From IMG/VR virus record IMGVR_UViG_2563366800_000007: a DNA stretch of 42,997 nt. One strand, written 5' to 3'. Source of the stretch: a virus (Duplodnaviria; Heunggongvirae; Uroviricota; Caudoviricetes). The notes below the pieces were generated by a model that saw nothing but the letters and a program-made list of their open reading frames with translations, did not search any database and was not told the DNA's origin. Positions within the stretch are counted from its first letter, which is position 1, and the number at the start of each line of letters is the position of its first letter. Of this stretch, positions 2,835 through 42,997 are shown in pieces. The position numbers and the translations under genes are program-made.

Positions 2835-5800
2835 TTATGCCTGAGTACGCAGCGCTTCAAGGCGGCGCAGGTCGAAGTCGTTCAGTTCGTCGGTGTAGTC
2901 AGCAGTGATTGGCGCTGGCCATTCACCTGTGTCGAATCCGGTTGCGATATTGCGCATCGCTTTGCGGTACTCGAGCATACCCAGCTCCAGTAGTTCAGCG
3001 GATGCCTCGATGATGGCGATCCAGTGGTAGTTCTCGTCTTTGTTGACGAAAATCCAGAAGAACTGATCCAGCGCTGCGGTTTCGCAGTACATAGCCGCGC
3101 TCAGGTGATAATCACGTTCAATAATTTCCCGGTGTAGCCTGGCGCGCAGGCTTTCCTGCTTAACATTCCACATGCTGATGGTTTTCAGGTCTGCACCTAT
3201 ACGCACGCCATCCAGGTCGATCTCAAGGTCAGGGCGCACACGAACTTCCAAGCCCGTCTCCTCGTCAAAACCAAAGTAGCTCACCTCAACGGCTCGGCTA
3301 GGGTGGGTCAGCAGCATGCCGGCGGTCGGGTGTGCCAGAAGCGCTTTTTGAATATTCAGCGCGGTGCTCAGCTGCTGGCGGGTGACCAGCACTTTTCCTT
3401 CCGGGTTATCGCGCCAGGCATCCAGCAGTTCGTCGGCAAATACGGCATCTGGTTTGACTGCCTTCACGGCCTGGATCATGTCTGCTTTGGTACCGGACAC
3501 TTTCAGTGGTGCCGGTTTCTGTGCTTCCTGAGCCACAAGGTCAGGGTTGATGATTGCCAACTGCTCCAGCAGCGCGTCACGGCTGCCGCTGGTTTTAACC
3601 GGCGGCGGCAGGGTGGCGTTGTACTCTTTAATGCATGCCTTCATTGCCGTCGCCGTCTGCTTCTGGTCACCATCAATACGCTGGAAGTCAGCTGGCAGCG
3701 CCATATAGTTCTGTGCCGTTTCTTCCAGGTTAGCGCCAAGCGGAACCTGCGGCGGCAGGGTGGCGTTGTACTCTTCCAGTAACACCTTGATGTCGTCGGC
3801 AGATAGCAGCGCCGGCAGGCTGGCATTGTGCTCATCGATAAAGGCGCGCAGGGTCGCGGCCGTTGTGAATGCGCCTTCAGGGATCACCGGTTCAACGCTG
3901 AATTCTGCGTCCAGTAGTTCAGGCTGCAACGCCAGCGCATGCACCAAGTTGCCCATGTCCAGCACCGCTGAGCGCTCTTTGACGATGGTTTTCTCTACGT
4001 GGCGCGCATTGAAGTACATCAGCGAAACGCGCGCATCTTTCACCTGGGTTGAGCTGATGCCGTTGGCGGCGTGGTAAACCTCGTTTGGCAGCCCTTCATA
4101 GCGGCCTGGCTCGAAATAAGCGGGATAAACAACAGCTGGTTCGTCAGATTGCGCTTCTGGCTCGGTTTGTGCTGCAACTGGTTCGGTTTGGCTTACAGAA
4201 TCGCTATTTTTGGCGACAGAATCCGTATTCTGGTTTACATCGTCCTTCTGGCTGGTATCTGACTCTTCACCAGACTCCAGACTGCTTTCGCCTGGCTGTA
4301 CTTCATCACCAACATTTTTTTCATCACTGACAGTTTCTTCCATCTGCACATTGCTGGTGGTTTCCTCATTAAGTGGTGAACGGTTATCTGTTTGTGTTTG
4401 TTGATCGCCCATCAGGCCATCAATGGAGAATACGCCGTTGCCCATGTTGGCGATTTGTGGCTGTTTAGCAGCTGTTTTCTGCTCTGCAGCGACCTGCTCA
4501 TTAACCTCATTTTCCCAGCTGACGTCCGGCGCATGACCAGCATCAGCCAGCGTTTCTTCTGAGGGGTTTGAGTGGTCATTTTCGGTTAGATTGGCGTTGA
4601 TATATGCCCGCAACCGCCCAGGAAAGTTAACCAATTCTGATGATGTGCCGCGGATGAGTGCAAAGATGGCGGCGCGTGAATAGTCCAGGATGCCAGCGGT
4701 TTTGCGCAGCGCCTCAGACCATTCGCTGAACGGACTTTCTTTCTTGCTGACAATCTCTTTAGCGCGACGGTAGACCCCACCAGGTATGTCGTAGATATTG
4801 AAATCCATTGGCAAGGTGGCCAGCGCAATTTCAACATCCAAAGTGTCCAGTGTGTGGACATAGTCGGTATTACGATCGGTCTTATTTCCACCGCCAGCAT
4901 TGGTTTTGACGTCAGTACGTTGAATCTGCGCAACGCGGTTACCTTTCTGCCATTCCTTGACCAGCAGGCCACGGTCGATGTAATTAGTGTTGAACCACAC
5001 AGTCAGGAACTGGATAACTGTTGCCAGCTCCGGTTTTTTACCGTCGACAGGGAAGACTTTCTTAACAGCATTCACGACTTTATGAATATCGTGCTCAATG
5101 GCTTTTTTGAATGCTTCCACATTCTCAGCAGCCAGCAGCAGGTTCTGGATGTACGTGTCATCAGTGTCCATCTCAAGGCGGACAATCTCGTTTTTCTGCC
5201 CAGCGTCGATGTGATAGAGATATTCACCATCACCGATGAACTGAGCCAGTACGCGCTGACGGAATGGCAGGGTGGCTACGACGATCAGGTTCGGCTGATC
5301 TGGCTGCTGAGATTGTTCTTCGGTACCGACTTCATCACCAACGCTGGTGGTTTCAGTTTTGAGCAGAGGAAACCTGCCACTGCGCCAGTCTTCAACCAGT
5401 TGATTGCGATCACCTGATTCTGCGTTCACCCAGTCAGACATGAAAGCAGCGATCACTTCAGGTCCATGCTCTTCACCCTGTTCGAAGATGTCTTTAATCG
5501 CCTGAATCATTTTCCACTCAGCATTAAGACTGAGTTCGCCAACTTCAGGAACATCATTTTTAACCTGCAGCAAGTTCTGGAGATAGGTATTGCTTTCGTC
5601 CAGTGACATTTCGCTGGCAGCCAGCTGCTGCTCTTTAGTGACGTGAGTCTGGTACTTATCGCTCATCAGATGGAAGGCAAAACGGACTGCTGGAGTGCGG
5701 TTTTCTAACGATACATTCTCGTCAGAAGTCGCTACTTCATCTGTATTTTTTACATCGGCAGGGATAGTGGTGACAACGTCGCCAGCGGCCTTTGGCAGCC

Positions 5801-11162: not shown

Positions 11163-11848
11163 AATCTCTTGCAGAGCAGATGCGTAACCACGACCGCGAG
11201 CAGATGAGCCGCATGGCCCATAACCTGCCAGAGCAGTACCAGGAGTGCGCGCCGGTCGAGCAGGTGGCGCAGGTATTCAACAAGCTGTTCAACGAGCTGC
11301 GCGCCGCGTTCCCGGCCAGCATGGCGAACTTCCGCACCCAGGAAGACCTGAACGAATTCCGCCGTCAGTGGCTGCTGGCGTTTCAGGAGAACGGGATCCA
11401 CACCATGGCTCAGGTCGATGCCGGCATGCGCATTGCCCGCCGCCAGGAGCGCCCATTCCTGCCGTCGCCGGGCCAGTTCGTCGCCTGGTGCAAGCAGAGC
11501 GGCGGCGCGCTGGGCGTCAACGTTGACCAGGTGATCGCCGAATACTGGGACTGGCGTAACCGCTCGTTCGAATTCATCTCCAGCGAGCAATTTCCATGGT
11601 CGCAGCCGGTCATGTACCACATTTGCGTAGAATTGCGCCACCGCAGCACCGAGCGCCAGTTAACGCATGGTGAACTGGCACGCGAGGCAGGCGATCTGCT
11701 GGACATGTGGGAAAGGCGCGTCACCGAGGGTAAGCCAGTGCCGCCGGTACGCCGGGCTATTGCCGCACCAGCTGCCGAGCAAGGGCCGACGCCGATCCAG
11801 CTGCTGCTGGCCAAGTACAACCGCAACAAGTCGAACGGGATGGTGTGA
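11159..11848 (+). CDS. Replication protein P-like (DnaB helicase loader)
   Basis: 229-aa product matches lambda P over its length by recall (AEQM.N.DREQM.R.A.N.PEQY...VQQVAQ..N..F..L...FPAS.AN...RRQW.LAF.ENGI.TM.QV.AGMR.ARRQ.RPFLPSPGQFVAWC). Confidence 0.85.
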   Translation: MKSLAEQMRNHDREQMSRMAHNLPEQYQECAPVEQVAQVFNKLFNELRAAFPASMANFRTQEDLNEFRRQWLLAFQENGIHTMAQVDAGMRIARRQERPFLPSPGQFVAWCKQSGGALGVNVDQVIAEYWDWRNRSFEFISSEQFPWSQPVMYHICVELRHRSTERQLTHGELAREAGDLLDMWERRVTEGKPVPPVRRAIAAPAAEQGPTPIQLLLAKYNRNKSNGMV

Positions 11849-11849
11849 C

Positions 11850-12090
11850 ATGAACATAACAATCCGTGAGCAGGTGCTGGCAGCCCTGCGCAACAACCCA
11901 GGGTTGAACAACGCCAAACTGGCAGGGCTTCCCGGAGTGGTACATCATCGATCAGGACTATCGGGGGCAGAAGTACGCGAAGGACAAGCAGGTTGCGCGT
12001 TGTGGCAACGCAGTTCCGCCGCCATTCGCCGAGGCACTGGTGAGGGCTAATTTACCGGAGCTTTGTCAGCAGAAAGAGATCGCAGCTTAA
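11850..12090 (+). pseudogene. Remnant of a C5-cytosine DNA methyltransferase (3-prime end only, no in-frame start)
   Basis: One frame encodes ...EWYIIDQDYRGQKYAKDKQVARCGNAVPPPFAEALVRANLPELCQQKEIAA, the C-terminal block of C5-methyltransferases, preceded by a stop; an overlapping 67-aa ORF in another frame has no recognisable similarity. Confidence 0.5.
12031..12090 (+). repeat. Direct repeat copy 1 (methylase 3-prime end), partner at 12619..12678
   Basis: 60-bp segment gaggcactggtgagggctaatttaccggagctttgtcagcagaaagagatcgcagcttaa, about 85% identical to the downstream copy. Confidence 0.6.
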
Positions 12091-12151
12091 TGTCCGAGTT
12101 TCAGAACATGGTGTAACAAATCCTGCTACTTCAATGACGTAGATTCAAACC

Positions 12152-12160
12152 TGATATAAT
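12152..12160 (+). promoter_or_regulatory. Extended -10 promoter candidate (TGaTATAAT) for the 12190..12426 gene
   Basis: TGnTATAAT motif about 30 bp upstream of the start codon; a leader hairpin (aggctc ... gagcct) would pair with part of the GAGGAG Shine-Dalgarno. Confidence 0.4.
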
Positions 12161-12189
12161 TAGGCTCTTCACAACACGAGGAGCCTAAA

Positions 12190-12426
12190 ATGCACCATTA
12201 CATGATCCCTATCAACGGAATTGTTCACCTGATCAAGACTGACTCTCTAATCCCTGAAGGGACTGAGTATAGCTTTGAAGGAGAAAGTCTAATCTGCGCT
12301 CATGCCACTTTTAAATCTGGGACGTATGGCTTCCTGATACCAAAGGGAAATCAGTTGAATAGAGAGCATGCGTTCTGGCATGTAAGTGGAATTCACCCTA
12401 ATCCCCTGGGAATGGATAAATCGTAA
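12190..12426 (+). CDS. Hypothetical 78-aa protein (orphan moron gene)
   Basis: Strong GAGGAG Shine-Dalgarno 7 nt upstream of the ATG; AT-rich; no recognisable motifs (MHHYMIPINGIVHLIKTDSLIPEGTEYSFEGESLICAHATFKSGTYGFLIPKGNQLNREHAFWHVSGIHPNPLGMDKS). Confidence 0.5.
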   Translation: MHHYMIPINGIVHLIKTDSLIPEGTEYSFEGESLICAHATFKSGTYGFLIPKGNQLNREHAFWHVSGIHPNPLGMDKS

Positions 12427-12434
12427 TCCATAAT

Positions 12435-12471
12435 ATGCATGCCATCGTCCTGAACATACGGTGGCATGCAT
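12435..12471. other. 13-bp near-perfect inverted repeat (ATGCATGCCAtCG - n11 - CGgTGGCATGCAT)
   Basis: Read directly, 9 bp downstream of the stop of the 78-aa gene; 12 of 13 arm positions pair; no U-run follows. Confidence 0.5.
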
Positions 12472-12618
12472 CCGGCACTACAACAGAAACGTTAAAGTGC
12501 AAACAATACAATTCGAGCAATATTCAACCTGTCACAGATGGCGAATACCACCGCCATTTCGTGCATTCTGTGGTTTCTATTACCCATTGCGTTAATGCTG
12601 TCCAATCATCAGCTCGCT

Positions 12619-12678
12619 GAGGCGCTGGTTAGGGCTAACCTACAGGAGCTTTGTCAGCAGAAACAAATAGCGGCGTAA
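12619..12678 (+). repeat. Direct repeat copy 2 (degraded methylase 3-prime end with a frameshift)
   Basis: gaggcgctggttagggctaacctacaggagctttgtcagcagaaacaaatagcggcgtaa; encodes ...LAEALVRANLQELCQQKQIAA out of frame with the upstream ...HCVNAV segment. Confidence 0.55.
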
Positions 12679-12785
12679 TAAAACATCGCTAATTCAACCC
12701 GCTACGGCGAGTTTTCTTTTTTTACTACTGACAGAAAATTAACAATTTGTGCTCTTAAAGCGTTGATCATTTCCGCGCATAGGTA

Positions 12786-12805
12786 TACTGTATAAAAACA
12801 CAGTA
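12786..12805. promoter_or_regulatory. LexA box (SOS operator) upstream of dinI
   Basis: TACTGTATAAAAACACAGTA fits the CTGT-n8-ACAG consensus; 19 bp upstream of the dinI start. Confidence 0.75.
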
Positions 12806-12823
12806 AATGCAATGGGGGCCATT

Positions 12824-13057
12824 ATGAAAGTTGAATTAACCATTGATCGCATGAAAGAACTTCCTAAAGGCGCAGTACCAGCACTGGAGAAAGAACTGCT
12901 TAAGCGCCTGAATGATCACTATGACAATTGCAGGCTCACAATCCGCCGTGCCGGGGCCGATGGGTTAAGTGTTTTTGGTGGTGACAAGGACGATAAAAAG
13001 AAAATTGAATCAATCCTCCAGGATACCTGGGAAAGCGCTGACGACTGGTTTTATTAG
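12824..13057 (+). CDS. dinI: DinI-family DNA-damage-inducible protein
   Basis: MKVELTIDRMKELPKGAVPALEKELLKRLN...ESILQDTWESADDWF matches the DinI pattern (…ISEILQETWESADDWF); LexA box upstream. Start 12824 (track ORF begins at 12812). Confidence 0.8.
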   Translation: MKVELTIDRMKELPKGAVPALEKELLKRLNDHYDNCRLTIRRAGADGLSVFGGDKDDKKKIESILQDTWESADDWFY

Positions 13058-13174
13058 AATTGCGCTTAAGGCTGGCGCGCATTTTTCAGAATACCGCAAT
13101 TTGCGTAACCCTCTGATGCTGCTGCCGACAATCTTTAATCGCGTCTGTTAGTCGCTCGAAGGGAGAACATAAAT

Positions 13175-13423
13175 GTGAGTGATTCAGCTTTGCAAACGTC
13201 AGAAGACAACTGGTATGACATTGTAAGAAGGTCTGACGGCTGCGTGGTGTTTAGCTTTCCTTCATCGGGCAGGCATCTAATTTATCGCGTCAATGGCATG
13301 GTTTCTATGCGGCCTTTGCTGGATGATGAAGAGGTCTTTACTCCTAATGGTTTTATGCAGTTTATTCACCGTCTCGGCTACCGGGTAACCCCACCTTCTG
13401 ATAATATGAAATCAACGGTCTGA
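13175..13423 (+). CDS. Hypothetical small protein
   Basis: 82-aa ORF with GTG start, GGGAG about 9 nt upstream; no recognisable motifs. Confidence 0.4.
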   Translation: MSDSALQTSEDNWYDIVRRSDGCVVFSFPSSGRHLIYRVNGMVSMRPLLDDEEVFTPNGFMQFIHRLGYRVTPPSDNMKSTV

Positions 13424-21183: not shown

Positions 21184-21330
21184 GTCCCATGTCCCACCTC
21201 TGGCGATCATTACGGACACCTCGCCAGCTCTGGCTATTCCAGTTTATTCCAGTGGGACATTCTGGTGGGACATGGCAAAAATGTCCCAGGCGAATGTCCC
21301 ACCCCAGAAAATGTCCCAGGTGATGTCCCA
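21184..21330. repeat. Eight copies of GTCCCA / TGGGAC (candidate terminase small-subunit binding sites, cosB-like)
   Basis: Hexamers at about 21184, 21191, 21283, 21296, 21313, 21325 (forward) and 21253, 21266 (reverse), mostly as ATGTCCCA with 12 to 17-bp spacing, ending at the terS start codon. Confidence 0.5.
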
Positions 21331-34935: not shown

Positions 34936-36339
34936 ATGCCGTCAATTATCCAGGACGCAATAACTTCTCTTTTGGGGGGAGATACCAGCGATGACTGGCA
35001 GGGGCAGTTACGGCCCAGCTCATTCAGAGGTGTGCCATTTGCAATTGTTGCTGAGGAAGGGAGCCACGGCCGACGCCAGGCGGTACATGAATATCCCTAC
35101 CGTGATACAGCCTGGATAGAGGATATCGGGCGGGCAACACGGCGATTTGTTATTCGCGGTTTCTTGATCCAGAACAGCCAGGTTTACGGCGGCGGCGATG
35201 CTATCACGCAGCGCCAGTCACTGATTGAAGCCTGTGAACAAAAAGGTAGCGGTACGCTTGTCCATCCGACACTGGGCGAATTAACGGTTTCCATCCCTGA
35301 GAATGGTTTGCGTATTTCCGGTTCGATGGAGAACGGGCGAGTATTTGAATTTACCCTGATGGCAATTGAATCAGGGCTTAAAGTGTTTGCTGTCACGGGC
35401 AGTACCGTTGCAGGCGCCACGGTGAAAACCAACTATCTGAAACTGGTCAGCACTGCTGTGCTGAGCACGATTGCCAGAGTTAAGAGTGAAATCCGCGGTG
35501 TCACGCAGGCTATAAACACCATCAGAGGCACGGTCACGTTCTGGACTAACATGGTTGACAGCACCATCAGTCAGGTCACGAATCTCAGCAATGTCCTGAA
35601 CTCCACGTTCGGGAATACCCGGTACGGACGTTACAGTAAAGGCTCTGTGGGCGGTAGTTCCTCTGCTGTTGCTGGCAAATCGTCAGTTGCTGATGTGGAT
35701 GATGAGAGAGCACTGGCTGACAAGGTAACAGCCCAGTCGGTAATGGACCGGAAAAATGTTACCGACAGGTCGAGCCAGCTTAGCAGCTCCAACACACCTG
35801 ATGAGTTTGTCCAGGGCGTCGCCGACGTGGTAAACGCAATTCTTAACAGCGCCGGCAGCGTTAATGACCGAATCACAGCGCTGGAAAAACTGGCTAATTC
35901 AATCAGCACGGAGTACCAGCAGTCCGACAGCAGCAAAGCGATTTCGGCGACCATGAACACGCTGATTGTTGTGCTATGTACTGGTGCCATGACCAGTGCC
36001 GCTGCGGACTCCAGACCAGCCAGTACAGACGAGGCAGAAGAGTTAACTCAACGAGTTTCTGTGCAACTTGATACGGCGCTGGTTCTGGCTGGAGACCGCG
36101 CAGACGATGATATGTATAACGCGCTTCTCGCCGTCAGATCGGCATTCCTTTCTACGATGAGTGAGCGTGCTTCTGGTCTGAGCGAGCTTCTGCAGGTTAC
36201 TACCGCTCAGCCGCTTCCGGCGCTGACGCTGGCAAACCGATTATACCAGGATGCCACCCGTGCAGATGAACTGGTACAGGAAGCGCGCGTACCGCATCCG
36301 GCGTTTATGCCGACAACCATGAAGGTACTGAGGCAATGA
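34936..36339 (+). CDS. DNA circularisation protein (Mu gpN-like)
   Basis: N-terminal SFRGVPFAIV...GRRQAVHEYPYRD...EDIGRATRRF parallels Mu N (SFRGVPFHVV...GRRYQLHEYPGRD...EDLGRKARRF). Track ORF begins with GTG at 34933. Confidence 0.75.
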   Translation: MPSIIQDAITSLLGGDTSDDWQGQLRPSSFRGVPFAIVAEEGSHGRRQAVHEYPYRDTAWIEDIGRATRRFVIRGFLIQNSQVYGGGDAITQRQSLIEACEQKGSGTLVHPTLGELTVSIPENGLRISGSMENGRVFEFTLMAIESGLKVFAVTGSTVAGATVKTNYLKLVSTAVLSTIARVKSEIRGVTQAINTIRGTVTFWTNMVDSTISQVTNLSNVLNSTFGNTRYGRYSKGSVGGSSSAVAGKSSVADVDDERALADKVTAQSVMDRKNVTDRSSQLSSSNTPDEFVQGVADVVNAILNSAGSVNDRITALEKLANSISTEYQQSDSSKAISATMNTLIVVLCTGAMTSAAADSRPASTDEAEELTQRVSVQLDTALVLAGDRADDDMYNALLAVRSAFLSTMSERASGLSELLQVTTAQPLPALTLANRLYQDATRADELVQEARVPHPAFMPTTMKVLRQ

Positions 36340-41880: not shown

Positions 41881-42396
41881 TTATGCAGCCCTCACAATGT
41901 AGTTAAATGCAATGTTTCGCGGGCTACCATCACCGGCGCCGGAACTGACATGATTTGTTCTATCCATTCGTTTACTGTCATTTGTTGTTCCACTCCCATC
42001 CTTCCACGAATACAATAACCCGCCATCGCCAATGCTCAACTGCACCGCAAATACGGATGAAACGGATGAATAAACATCACTAGCCATGAGTGGGTTCCCG
42101 GTCCATCCATGCATTTCATGGTTATGTTCAAGGATAGATGCCGCCTGACTTGAAAGTAGCAGTCTCGCGGAATCAACACCTCGCCCATCATCCCACCCGC
42201 GAATAAACTCACCGCGCAAATCCGGTAATTTTAACTTTGGGTAAGCCTTTGCCAGTTTTGGGTACTCTTCGGCAGAAAAAGGTGCACCGTTGCATTTCAG
42301 CCAGCCTGTTGGTGGTGTGGCTGAAGGCCACGGAACAGGCACACCAACGGGTAACGCTGAGCCTTCTCCCAAACCAACCTTTTTTATAACCATCAA
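41881..42396 (-). CDS. Alternative tail-fibre C-terminal variable segment (expressed after inversion)
   Basis: Minus-strand ORF whose codons 7 to 11 (VGLGE) share the 14-bp crossover sequence with the plus-strand fibre gene, in frame; collar-type C-terminal domain (PLGEGSALPVG ... LPDLRGEFIRGW ... NIAFNYIVRA). Confidence 0.65.
   Translation of the reverse strand: MMVIKKVGLGEGSALPVGVPVPWPSATPPTGWLKCNGAPFSAEEYPKLAKAYPKLKLPDLRGEFIRGWDDGRGVDSARLLLSSQAASILEHNHEMHGWTGNPLMASDVYSSVSSVFAVQLSIGDGGLLYSWKDGSGTTNDSKRMDRTNHVSSGAGDGSPRNIAFNYIVRAA
42364..42389. other. gix/hix-like recombination site next to the invertase gene
   Basis: TTCTCCCAAACCAACCTTTTTTATAA; matches the recalled hix consensus (TTCTTGAAAACCAAGGTTTTTGATAA) at about 20 of 26 positions and is inverted relative to the first site. 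Confidence 0.6.
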
Positions 42397-42448
42397 AAAT
42401 CTGGTGATGCTTCGCCGTTTCTCCTGTTTTCATAACAGGAGAAATCCC

Positions 42449-42997
42449 ATGATTTACGGTTATGCCCGAGTATCAACAAACCACCAGGACACTGAATTGC
42501 AACTAACGGCGCTCAAGTCAGCGGGTTGTGAGAAAATTTTTGAAGAGCATGCCAGCGGGAGGAAATCGAATCGGCCGGTTCTAAAACGGCTCATCGCCAC
42601 TATGCAGCCGGGGGATGAACTGGTGGTCTGGAAGCTGGACAGGATAGGCCGCAACGTTCTGCATGCGCTGTTGATGTTCCAGCAGTTACAGGAAAAGGGT
42701 ATCAACTTCCGCAGTATTACCGATGGCGTGGATCTCAAAACAGCCAGCGGCCGCTATAACTTTCGTAACATCCTTTCCGCAGCACAATATGAATCTGATC
42801 TTAATAGCGAACGTACCTTAGCAGGGCTGGCCGTAGCCAGGGCAAAAGGGCGAGTTGGTGGTCGCAGGCCTAAGTTCACGGATGAGCAATGGCGGGAAAT
42901 GGGGGAGCGGATGGCAACCGGTGAATCACGACAAAGCGTATCAAAAACGTATGGAGTAGGGCTCTCAACTCTGTATAAAAAGTTTCCAGCTAGCTGA
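42449..42997 (+). CDS. Serine DNA invertase (Gin/Hin/Pin family)
   Basis: MIYGYARVSTNHQDTELQ...VVWKLDRIGR and a C-terminal HTH (GESRQSVSKTYGVGLSTLYK) are diagnostic; AGGAGA ribosome-binding site. Track ORF begins at 42290. Confidence 0.9.
   Translation: MIYGYARVSTNHQDTELQLTALKSAGCEKIFEEHASGRKSNRPVLKRLIATMQPGDELVVWKLDRIGRNVLHALLMFQQLQEKGINFRSITDGVDLKTASGRYNFRNILSAAQYESDLNSERTLAGLAVARAKGRVGGRRPKFTDEQWREMGERMATGESRQSVSKTYGVGLSTLYKKFPAS

Follow-up and report, generated by a model that had tools for sequence, protein, structure and literature searches.

Several described arrangements stand close to the locus treated here, which comprises a 78-codon gene, a hairpin over its ribosome-binding site (RBS) and a long stem-loop just past its stop codon, and which lies in a 42,997-nucleotide (nt) stretch of DNA from a virus of the Caudoviricetes (IMG/VR virus record IMGVR_UViG_2563366800_000007; the whole stretch is referred to below as the window). 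One of them goes by the name of moron, a term of Hendrix and colleagues. Another is the fold-back inhibition against outside transcription of the insertion sequences IS10 and IS50, reportedly described by Davis, Simons and Kleckner in 1985, by Krebs and Reznikoff in 1986, and by Schulz and Reznikoff in 1991. In IS10 and IS50, the element's own transcript starts inside an inverted repeat, and this mRNA, which lacks the 5' arm, is translated, whereas read-through RNA folds and its translation start is hidden. As for morons, the definition quoted in PMC2629481 is that of independently expressed genes inserted in a phage operon. A related case is the tnpA leader of IS200, in which a stem-loop sequesters the RBS and represses 30S binding, together with measures against incoming transcription (PMC4513863). 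At the opposite end of the message, Dar and Sorek (2018) reported that Rho-dependent 3' ends in Escherichia coli carry stable stem-loops with no following U residues, that Rho-loading (rut) sites lie shortly behind these, and that the ends are shielded from PNPase and RNase II (PMC6061677).

The sequence of the window agrees to 99.8-100% with that of phage mEp237 and with E. coli prophages, which marks it as a lambdoid (lambda-like) E. coli prophage, near-identical to mEp237. The region around the 78-codon gene is very probably a self-contained, self-promoted accessory cassette of the moron kind, consisting of a promoter, a short leader, the gene itself and a 3' stem-loop (Table 1). Two roles are proposed for its structures, namely a leader hairpin that filters out read-through transcripts and a 3' stem-loop that protects RNA terminated by Rho, and we give the whole package, cassette, leader filter and 3'-end role together, about an even chance. 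Loci fetched for comparison carry L-numbers (L003, L004, L028, L037, L038, L039, L047 and L084), L003 being E. coli H6.

A leader hairpin abutting a candidate promoter

Folded as RNA, the leader of the gene forms a hairpin with a centroid energy of -16.4 kcal/mol (z-score -3.1), which 2 of 200 shuffled sequences equalled. The first base of its 5' arm (12160-12170) is at the same time the last T of the -10 box, and its 3' arm (12178-12188) spans the entire RBS. A preliminary description of this DNA, drawn from its letters alone, had already noticed that aggctc can pair with gagcct in the leader; these segments lie at 12162-12167 and 12181-12186, and the hairpin that they belong to is stable and real. 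The same description had the GAGGAG sequence partly paired, which is right as to occlusion and too cautious as to extent, every base of the sequence being paired. The translational control that it suggested is reasonable, an anti-RBS element being found at the same place in five of six lineages of the gene; what it missed is the -10 box abutting the 5' arm, a geometry by which the mechanism would shift from a general throttle to a promoter-dependent filter.

The candidate sigma-70 promoter in question coincides with a site annotated as a promoter by the depositors of mEp237. Its extended -10 pattern, TGNTATAAT, has two occurrences only in the 43 kilobases (kb) of the window, the other perfect box being TGGTATAAT on the - strand (36240-36248). 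The 27-nt promoter motif ATGACGTAGATTYAAAYYTGATATAAT was found in 40 of the 42 loci collected at that stage, the two exceptions being L028, which has TTGACG and is thereby nearer to the -35 consensus, and L038, which has a different promoter (TGGTATAAT). Including its spacer, the motif shows 0-2 differences (93-100% conserved) between lineages whose coding DNA is 51-54% identical, and in IMG/VR the contigs with a 26-nt version of it number exactly 30 and are those in which the protein is encoded. Conservation of the spacer goes beyond what sigma-70 needs, and a bound factor is possible; motifs for LexA, CRP, FNR, IHF and MarA/SoxS were sought by eye in the conserved spacer, and none was convincing.

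Because the -10 box abuts the 5' arm, transcription from this promoter is expected to start inside that arm, and we infer that the RNA begins at about 12166-12169. The resulting mRNA would be devoid of the anti-RBS sequence, so that its RBS would be free and translated, whereas early-operon transcripts, running from pR through O, P and ren, would carry both arms, fold into the -16 kcal/mol hairpin and hide the RBS. The protein would then be made mainly from its own promoter, presumably in the lysogen, and hardly from lytic read-through.

Thermodynamic predictions are consistent with such differential translation. According to ViennaRNA, opening the RBS in read-through RNA of the window (including 120 nt upstream) costs 13.2 kcal/mol, versus 2.2-3.6 kcal/mol in RNA that starts 6-9 nt past the -10 box; in the other lineages that share the promoter, the corresponding figures are 6.7-12.9 kcal/mol for read-through and 1.3-3.6 kcal/mol for the own start. 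The cost of opening ranks second among 40 sites of the window (mean 4.5, standard deviation 2.9), these control sites being defined by an RBS, an ATG and a long open reading frame (ORF). Over the whole ribosome footprint, the cost falls by 10.6 kcal/mol on truncation at the predicted start, a drop reached by 0.8% of random positions and by 5% of RBS sites.

The highest RBS opening cost in the window, 14.0 kcal/mol, belongs to another site, where a perfect 11-base-pair (bp) hairpin (TTTCTCCTGTT / AACAGGAGAAA, 42418-42444; fold z-score -4.4) buries the RBS of a gene starting at 42450. The latter encodes a serine recombinase (Pin/Gin-like invertase) and lies beside tail-fibre genes, and a crossover-site-like sequence, TTCTCCCAAACCAACC, is found at about 42364-42380.

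Several observations weigh against the leader filter. The cost of opening the whole 31-nt footprint in read-through RNA, 14.2 kcal/mol, is ordinary for this phage (means 11.7-13.2), so that what stands out is confined to the cost at the RBS and to the change on truncation. When eight leader variants are aligned, 92% of the cells are paired and there are 0 compensatory double changes; covariation thus speaks neither for the structure nor against it. On the side of the promoter, the -35 hexamer is weak (4/6) and the spacer short (15 nt), and a simple promoter scan, which demands a spacer of 16-18 nt, made no call at 12134-12160. The start site, finally, is placed solely by the usual distance of 6-9 nt from a -10 box, and no purine stands at those positions. 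With these points taken into account, the proposal that the leader hairpin filters out read-through transcripts is a tentative one, whose chances we put just short of even.

Could the hairpin instead be a constitutive translational throttle, a thermometer or a switch in the gene's own mRNA, with transcripts starting upstream of 12160 or coming from pR only, and with an expression that is low or opened by a signal? This corresponds to what the preliminary description had in mind, and it accords with a hairpin that is both stable and specific, with a candidate promoter that is unverified and was missed by the scan, and with the precedent of IS200, which has a constitutive RBS hairpin of such a kind (PMC4513863). 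However, an mRNA with a -16 kcal/mol hairpin and all RBS bases paired would be nearly untranslatable, which is hard to square with long-term purifying selection on the gene. No known regulatory RNA family was recognized either, the Rfam 15 covariance models giving 0 matches (E up to 10) in 11500-13200 on both strands, and the conserved TGnTATAAT that abuts the arm in every lineage, and also in front of two unrelated neighbouring genes, would be left as an unexplained coincidence. As to a thermometer, the stem is in our judgement too GC-rich and too stable for 30-42 C. Control of this kind in the gene's own mRNA thus appears unlikely, and the promoter-dependent filter is preferred.

The layout of promoter and hairpin is not restricted to a single leader sequence. 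In L038, where promoter and leader are unrelated to those of the window, the segment formed by -10 box and discriminator can still pair with the start-codon region (-13.2 kcal/mol, a value that 1.8% of shuffles reach). A scan for the layout covered 558 kb (the window and the fetched loci) and 589 distinct sites made up of an RBS and a start codon; a local hairpin over the RBS was present at 51 of them, ten of which abut a perfect TATAAT. Eight of these ten are variants of the 78-amino-acid (aa) gene family, and two belong to unrelated neighbouring genes. One of them, found in H6-type loci (L003 about 2885-2922; also L047), is theta-like (DNA polymerase III), and the other is a 60-aa ORF in L004 (about 3436-3469), where the hairpin is followed by UUUUU and looks as though it doubles as an intrinsic terminator for incoming transcripts. 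At other upstream positions of these hairpins, -10-like hexamers amounted to 0 of 1299.

Promoter-embedded anti-RBS hairpins, in which a consensus -10 box runs into the 5' arm and the RBS forms the 3' arm, might even be a general design of accessory genes in lambdoid early operons. Translation of such genes would be confined to own-promoter transcripts made in the lysogen, with silencing in the anti-terminated read-through RNA of lytic growth; on this view, the 78-aa protein would be a factor specific to the lysogen and harmful when made in lytic growth, such as an exclusion or defence factor or a host modulator. This generalization is rather unlikely as it stands. If the start-site geometry holds, the layout, seen again in no fewer than three unrelated genes of the neighbourhood, would be usable as a sequence signature for lysogen-expressed genes.

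Table 1. Features of the cassette and of its borders, in positions of the window
Feature	Position	Strand	Description and basis
Methylase remnant 1	11923..12090	+	last 56 codons of a C5 cytosine methyltransferase; blastx 93%, residues 608-663 of the full-length E. coli H6 methylase
Candidate sigma-70 promoter	12134..12160	+	-35-like ATGACG 12134-12139; 15-nt spacer; perfect extended -10 TGATATAAT 12152-12160
Leader hairpin	12160..12188	+	11 pairs including one G.U; 7-nt loop ACAACAC; fold of 12140-12230 as RNA
Shine-Dalgarno sequence GAGGAG	12178..12183	+	6 nt upstream of ATG; GGAGC invariant in leader alignment
Coding sequence, 78 aa (mEp237_047, PHROG 30079)	12190..12426	+	ATG start, TAA stop; ORF list and annotation
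3' stem-loop	12435..12471	+	14-bp stem (13 Watson-Crick pairs and one G.U), 9-nt loop; arms 12435-12448 and 12458-12471; 8 nt past the stop
Untranslated C-rich, G-poor spacer, candidate Rho-loading (rut) region	12472..12612	+	141 nt; C/G ratio
Second, smaller hairpin	12475..12500	+	GCACU...AGUGC; directly past the palindrome
Methylase remnant 2	12613..12678	+	last 22 codons of a more diverged copy; 86% over 22 aa; right border of cassette

The 3' stem-loop and the spacer behind it

The stem-loop that follows the stop codon has an energy of -22.2 kcal/mol (z-score -3.3), with 0 of 200 shuffled sequences as good, and no other spaced stem-loop of this size in the window equals it. A long inverted repeat without a U-run just 3' of the gene had been described from the outset, and it is indeed there, with arms of 14 nt and a distance of 8 nt from the stop codon. 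No U-run follows the stem-loop (sequence CCGGCACTACAAC, tail CCGGCACUACAAC), and the terminator scan gives no call. Together with the smaller hairpin directly behind it, the structure reaches -29.4 kcal/mol over 12427-12530 (z-score -5.4). The spacer downstream has a C/G ratio of 1.54 overall and of up to 1.75 over 78 nt, which is the 96th percentile of the window, and this stretch is present only together with the 78-aa gene. A 61-codon ORF that starts in the palindrome (12435-12620) was considered and rejected as coding, since it is broken in relatives.

These features suggest a role at the 3' end of the message: the stem-loop may mark and protect the 3' end of transcripts that Rho would terminate downstream, and may thus take the place of the canonical terminator found in sister lineages. 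No lineage but the mEp237 type has the palindrome. In its place, the H6 and Citrobacter lineages carry a canonical terminator, AAAACCGCTTCGGCGGTTTTT, L038 a strong hairpin without a U-run, and L039 and L037 a weak hairpin only. Among the uses first considered for the palindrome (terminator, RNA processing site or protein-binding site), a non-canonical terminator or 3'-end element fits best and a protein-binding site fits worse, none of these options being provable here. That the stem-loop serves as a 3'-end protector for Rho-terminated RNA is possible, at somewhat less than even probability.

Comparison of eight palindrome variants gives a mixed picture of how the stem has been kept. Seven of the eight retain a core of 9 bp, L004 being the exception by one G-G mismatch. 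The variation at four core pairs is one-sided, each change giving a G.U pair on the + strand, and the outer and innermost pairs decay. Over the same eight variants, the search for covariation returned 1 double change, with a score equal to that of shuffles. In L004, the palindrome folds no better than shuffles (z-score -0.3), and decay of the outer and innermost pairs would fit a relic; these results speak against a maintained 3' structure. Since there is no covariation to rely on in either hairpin, conservation of structure is inseparable from conservation of sequence.

The same comparisons bear on whether the two repeats act as RNA or as protein-binding palindromes at the DNA level, in which case the transcription start would lie under an operator formed by the leader repeat, and the 3' palindrome would be a binding or recombination site. 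Half-sites GGCTC/GAGCC stand 17-18 bp apart, centre to centre, in four lineages; conservation of the promoter spacer far exceeds the needs of a plain sigma-70 promoter, which hints at a bound factor; and a mosaic junction between methylase remnants is where the 3' palindrome is found. In contrast, each mismatch between arms is a T opposite a G, hence a G.U pair in + strand RNA (A.C on the other strand) and a plain mismatch in DNA, and none of the one-sided changes in the 3' stem is incompatible with a G.U pair on the + strand; it is because every arm mismatch is G.U that RNA is favoured over DNA as the level of action. Moreover, the leader repeat has the RBS as its 3' arm, whose conservation is thereby explained, the -10 box and the start codon would dictate the spacing of the half-sites just as well, and the cassette contains no candidate regulator. 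Protein-binding palindromes are therefore very unlikely to account for the locus.

The gene, its family and the borders of the cassette

The 78-aa ORF is annotated as a hypothetical protein in mEp237 (mEp237_047). A tally against its being a gene begins with the Prokaryotic Genome Annotation Pipeline (PGAP), which calls no ORF here in RefSeq genomes, and continues with the mEp237 lineage itself, in which the ratio of nonsynonymous to synonymous substitution rates (dN/dS) is 0.3-1.1 with very few substitutions, so that current constraint is not judgeable from it. PGAP does call the H6-type homologue (WP_016247098.1). Word-indexed, exhaustive HMMER and profile searches delineate a family of about six lineages, with proteins of 75-78 aa and identities down to about 40%: the mEp237 type (88-100% identity), the H6/Citrobacter werkmanii type (42-43%), the 75-aa form of L038 (40%) and the 78-aa form of L039 and L037 (39-40%) are among them. 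Family members align end to end, with zero gaps or indels, and none of the loci read has a broken ORF. Between lineages, the proportion of differing sites is 0.74-0.86 for synonymous positions (pS), which are saturated, versus 0.33-0.42 for nonsynonymous positions (pN), and dN/dS between H6 and Citrobacter is 0.25. On these sequence comparisons, the ORF is a real gene under purifying selection.

The family is rare and, so far, confined to E. coli and Citrobacter in the collections searched. It was found in 35 of 5426 complete E. coli genomes, in 1 of 50,697 phage records (mEp237 alone) and in 30 IMG/VR contigs that encode the protein; GTDB species representatives gave no match by either the protein pattern or the promoter pattern, and a metagenome scan produced no new lineage of the 78-aa family. 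Two sets of candidates were set aside. One is L084 1501-1716, a segment with 30% identity within a 633-aa helicase-like metagenome protein that shares GIYGFLVPK with the family; chance is the probable source of this match, the candidates having been pre-selected by that pattern. The other consists of four long repeat proteins returned by the exhaustive HMMER search (1.84 billion representatives), whose scores are summed chance matches; the remaining matches were all family members.

The gene had been called an orphan without recognisable family. Strictly speaking it is none, as it belongs to a small family with diverged homologues and its protein matches PHROG 30079, a group with unknown function that is its sole database match; the other half of the statement holds, in that Pfam, NCBIfam, PADLOC and PDB sequences contain no match to the 78-aa protein, nor was there a defence-system or fold match. 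An AlphaFold2 model built on an alignment of eight sequences (predicted local distance difference test score, pLDDT, 72.8) shows five beta-strands and a C-terminal helix. The last eight residues of the model are of low confidence, yet they hold the invariant motif P70-N71-P72-L73 (PNPL), which takes the form HPNPL in most members. As a conserved motif in a flexible tail, it suggests a partner-binding peptide, and our guess is a small binding protein that would act on a host or phage partner through this conserved C-terminal PNPL tail. A resemblance to WG/KWG beta-hairpin repeats was considered and dropped, as nothing supported it. As a candidate for a new function in lysogenic conversion or against phages, the protein is a modest one.

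To judge from its neighbours, which are all on one strand, the cassette lies in the early-right (nin) region of a lambdoid operon: repressor and cII-like genes, then O, P and ren, are upstream, and a DinI-like gene, a DUF1367 gene (which we take to be ninB, the annotation saying DUF1367 only), RusA and Q are downstream. The cassette is flanked by two 3' ends of a methylase gene (11923-12090 and 12613-12678), which place it between them. The start of ren at 11850 is joined out of frame to the first of these remnants (11850-12090), the full phage methylase measuring roughly 660 aa. In H6 and L038, the methylase is intact and a member of the 78-aa family follows directly after it, and mEp237 has kept a longer methylase piece of 405 nt. 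In other E. coli genomes, an intact methylase continues straight into the sequence of 12614-12700, with no cassette between. The methylase is in the course of being lost, and the cassette stays intact. By position, the guanine-plus-cytosine (GC) content is 0.42-0.44 over 12100-12600 versus 0.57-0.67 over 11200-12100, and the downstream neighbours are low in GC too.

Another context is seen in L039 and L037, where the cassette lies upstream of an integrase gene and of a gene for a DUF1233 protein, presumably an excisionase, and where homology begins exactly at the -35 hexamer. As promoter, leader and gene are shared in this foreign context, all three travel together, and the cassette is, as far as these genome comparisons go, dispensable and portable. 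That the palindrome might lie inside a fossil methylase gene was also tested; the significant match is limited to 12613-12678, and the idea is not supported.

A further hairpin of this region, GCAGGA-N9-TCCTGC, was noticed by eye between the methylase stop codon and the -35 hexamer of H6-type loci (L003 2506-2530 and equivalents). It exists as a G.U variant in L028, is largely lost in the window at about 12105-12130, and may belong to the 3' end of the methylase mRNA.

At this mosaic site, the whole arrangement could also be a decaying passenger with no present function, in which the leader pairing would be a chance match between the RBS and a pyrimidine-rich discriminator, and the 3' palindrome a recombination scar; with inert structures, the locus would be an ordinary mosaic junction in the nin region. 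The lack of covariation in the leader, a covariation in the 3' stem no better than in shuffles, dN/dS values near 1 in some close pairs, the death of the flanking methylase, the eroded palindrome of L004 and the rare distribution all agree with this explanation. They are set against an ORF that has stayed intact in all loci read, across six lineages and with synonymous change saturated, a promoter and leader that are, column by column, 91% identical across lineages, an architecture that recurs independently, and a 3' stem-loop that has no equal of its kind in the 43 kb or among 200 shuffles. A functionless relic is improbable, and a maintained cassette remains the preferred interpretation.

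Two other sites of the window deserve mention. Upstream of the DinI-like gene (12824-13057; Pfam DinI, E 4e-26), a near-consensus LexA box (TACTGTATAAAAACACAGTA, 12786-12805) overlaps a TATACT -10-like hexamer, which suggests that this neighbour is an accessory gene under SOS control. The longest spaced inverted repeat in the window lies at 21246-21303 and has 22-nt arms, 86% complementary and 7 nt apart, made up of repeats of GTGGGACAT; to judge by where it lies, it may be a packaging or late-regulatory site.

The cassette among known systems

The locus shares with morons a presence or absence at the same spot among close relatives, a GC content below that of the upstream operon, and an orientation that follows the operon. 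A promoter of its own would be a further likeness; the candidate has a consensus -10 box and a depositors' annotation, but a weak -35 hexamer and a negative scan. Two sister lineages, H6 and Citrobacter, also have the canonical terminator (AAAACCGCTTCGGCGGTTTTT) of their own. The lineage of the window departs from this scheme at both ends: a stem-loop without a U-run replaces the factor-independent terminator, and the leader hairpin over the RBS overlaps the promoter. To our knowledge, an RBS hairpin overlapping the promoter lies outside the definition of a moron and is undescribed for morons. No description of a promoter-embedded hairpin device in phage morons was found in a literature to which access was limited, and no priority is claimed; a literature search on mEp237 returned false matches only.

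At its 3' end, the cassette resembles the transcripts of Dar and Sorek in having a stable stem-loop just past the coding sequence, without U residues and with a C-rich, G-poor stretch directly downstream. It differs from them in that its stem is unusually long and palindromic (14 bp, -22 kcal/mol) and occurs in one lineage only.

Concerning the leader, the likeness to IS200 is limited by the place of the hairpin, which in IS200 is inside the element's own mRNA and constitutive, while a separate terminator blocks incoming transcription. The closer parallel is with IS10 and IS50. In both cases an inverted repeat pairs the region of translation start with upstream sequence; the geometry fits, with a -10 box that ends at 12160 and a 5' arm at 12160-12170, so that the predicted start would fall as it does in these elements; and read-through and own RNA differ, by thermodynamic prediction, as noted above (13.2 versus 2.2-3.6 kcal/mol). 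Unlike them, the cassette carries a prophage accessory gene and not a transposase, has no sequence relationship to IS10 or IS50, and has no evident antisense RNA partner. Taken together, the locus would represent a tidy but fairly ordinary piece of phage regulation that follows known principles and, if its geometry holds, a very compact means of own-promoter-only translation for a gene placed co-directionally inside a heavily transcribed lytic operon.

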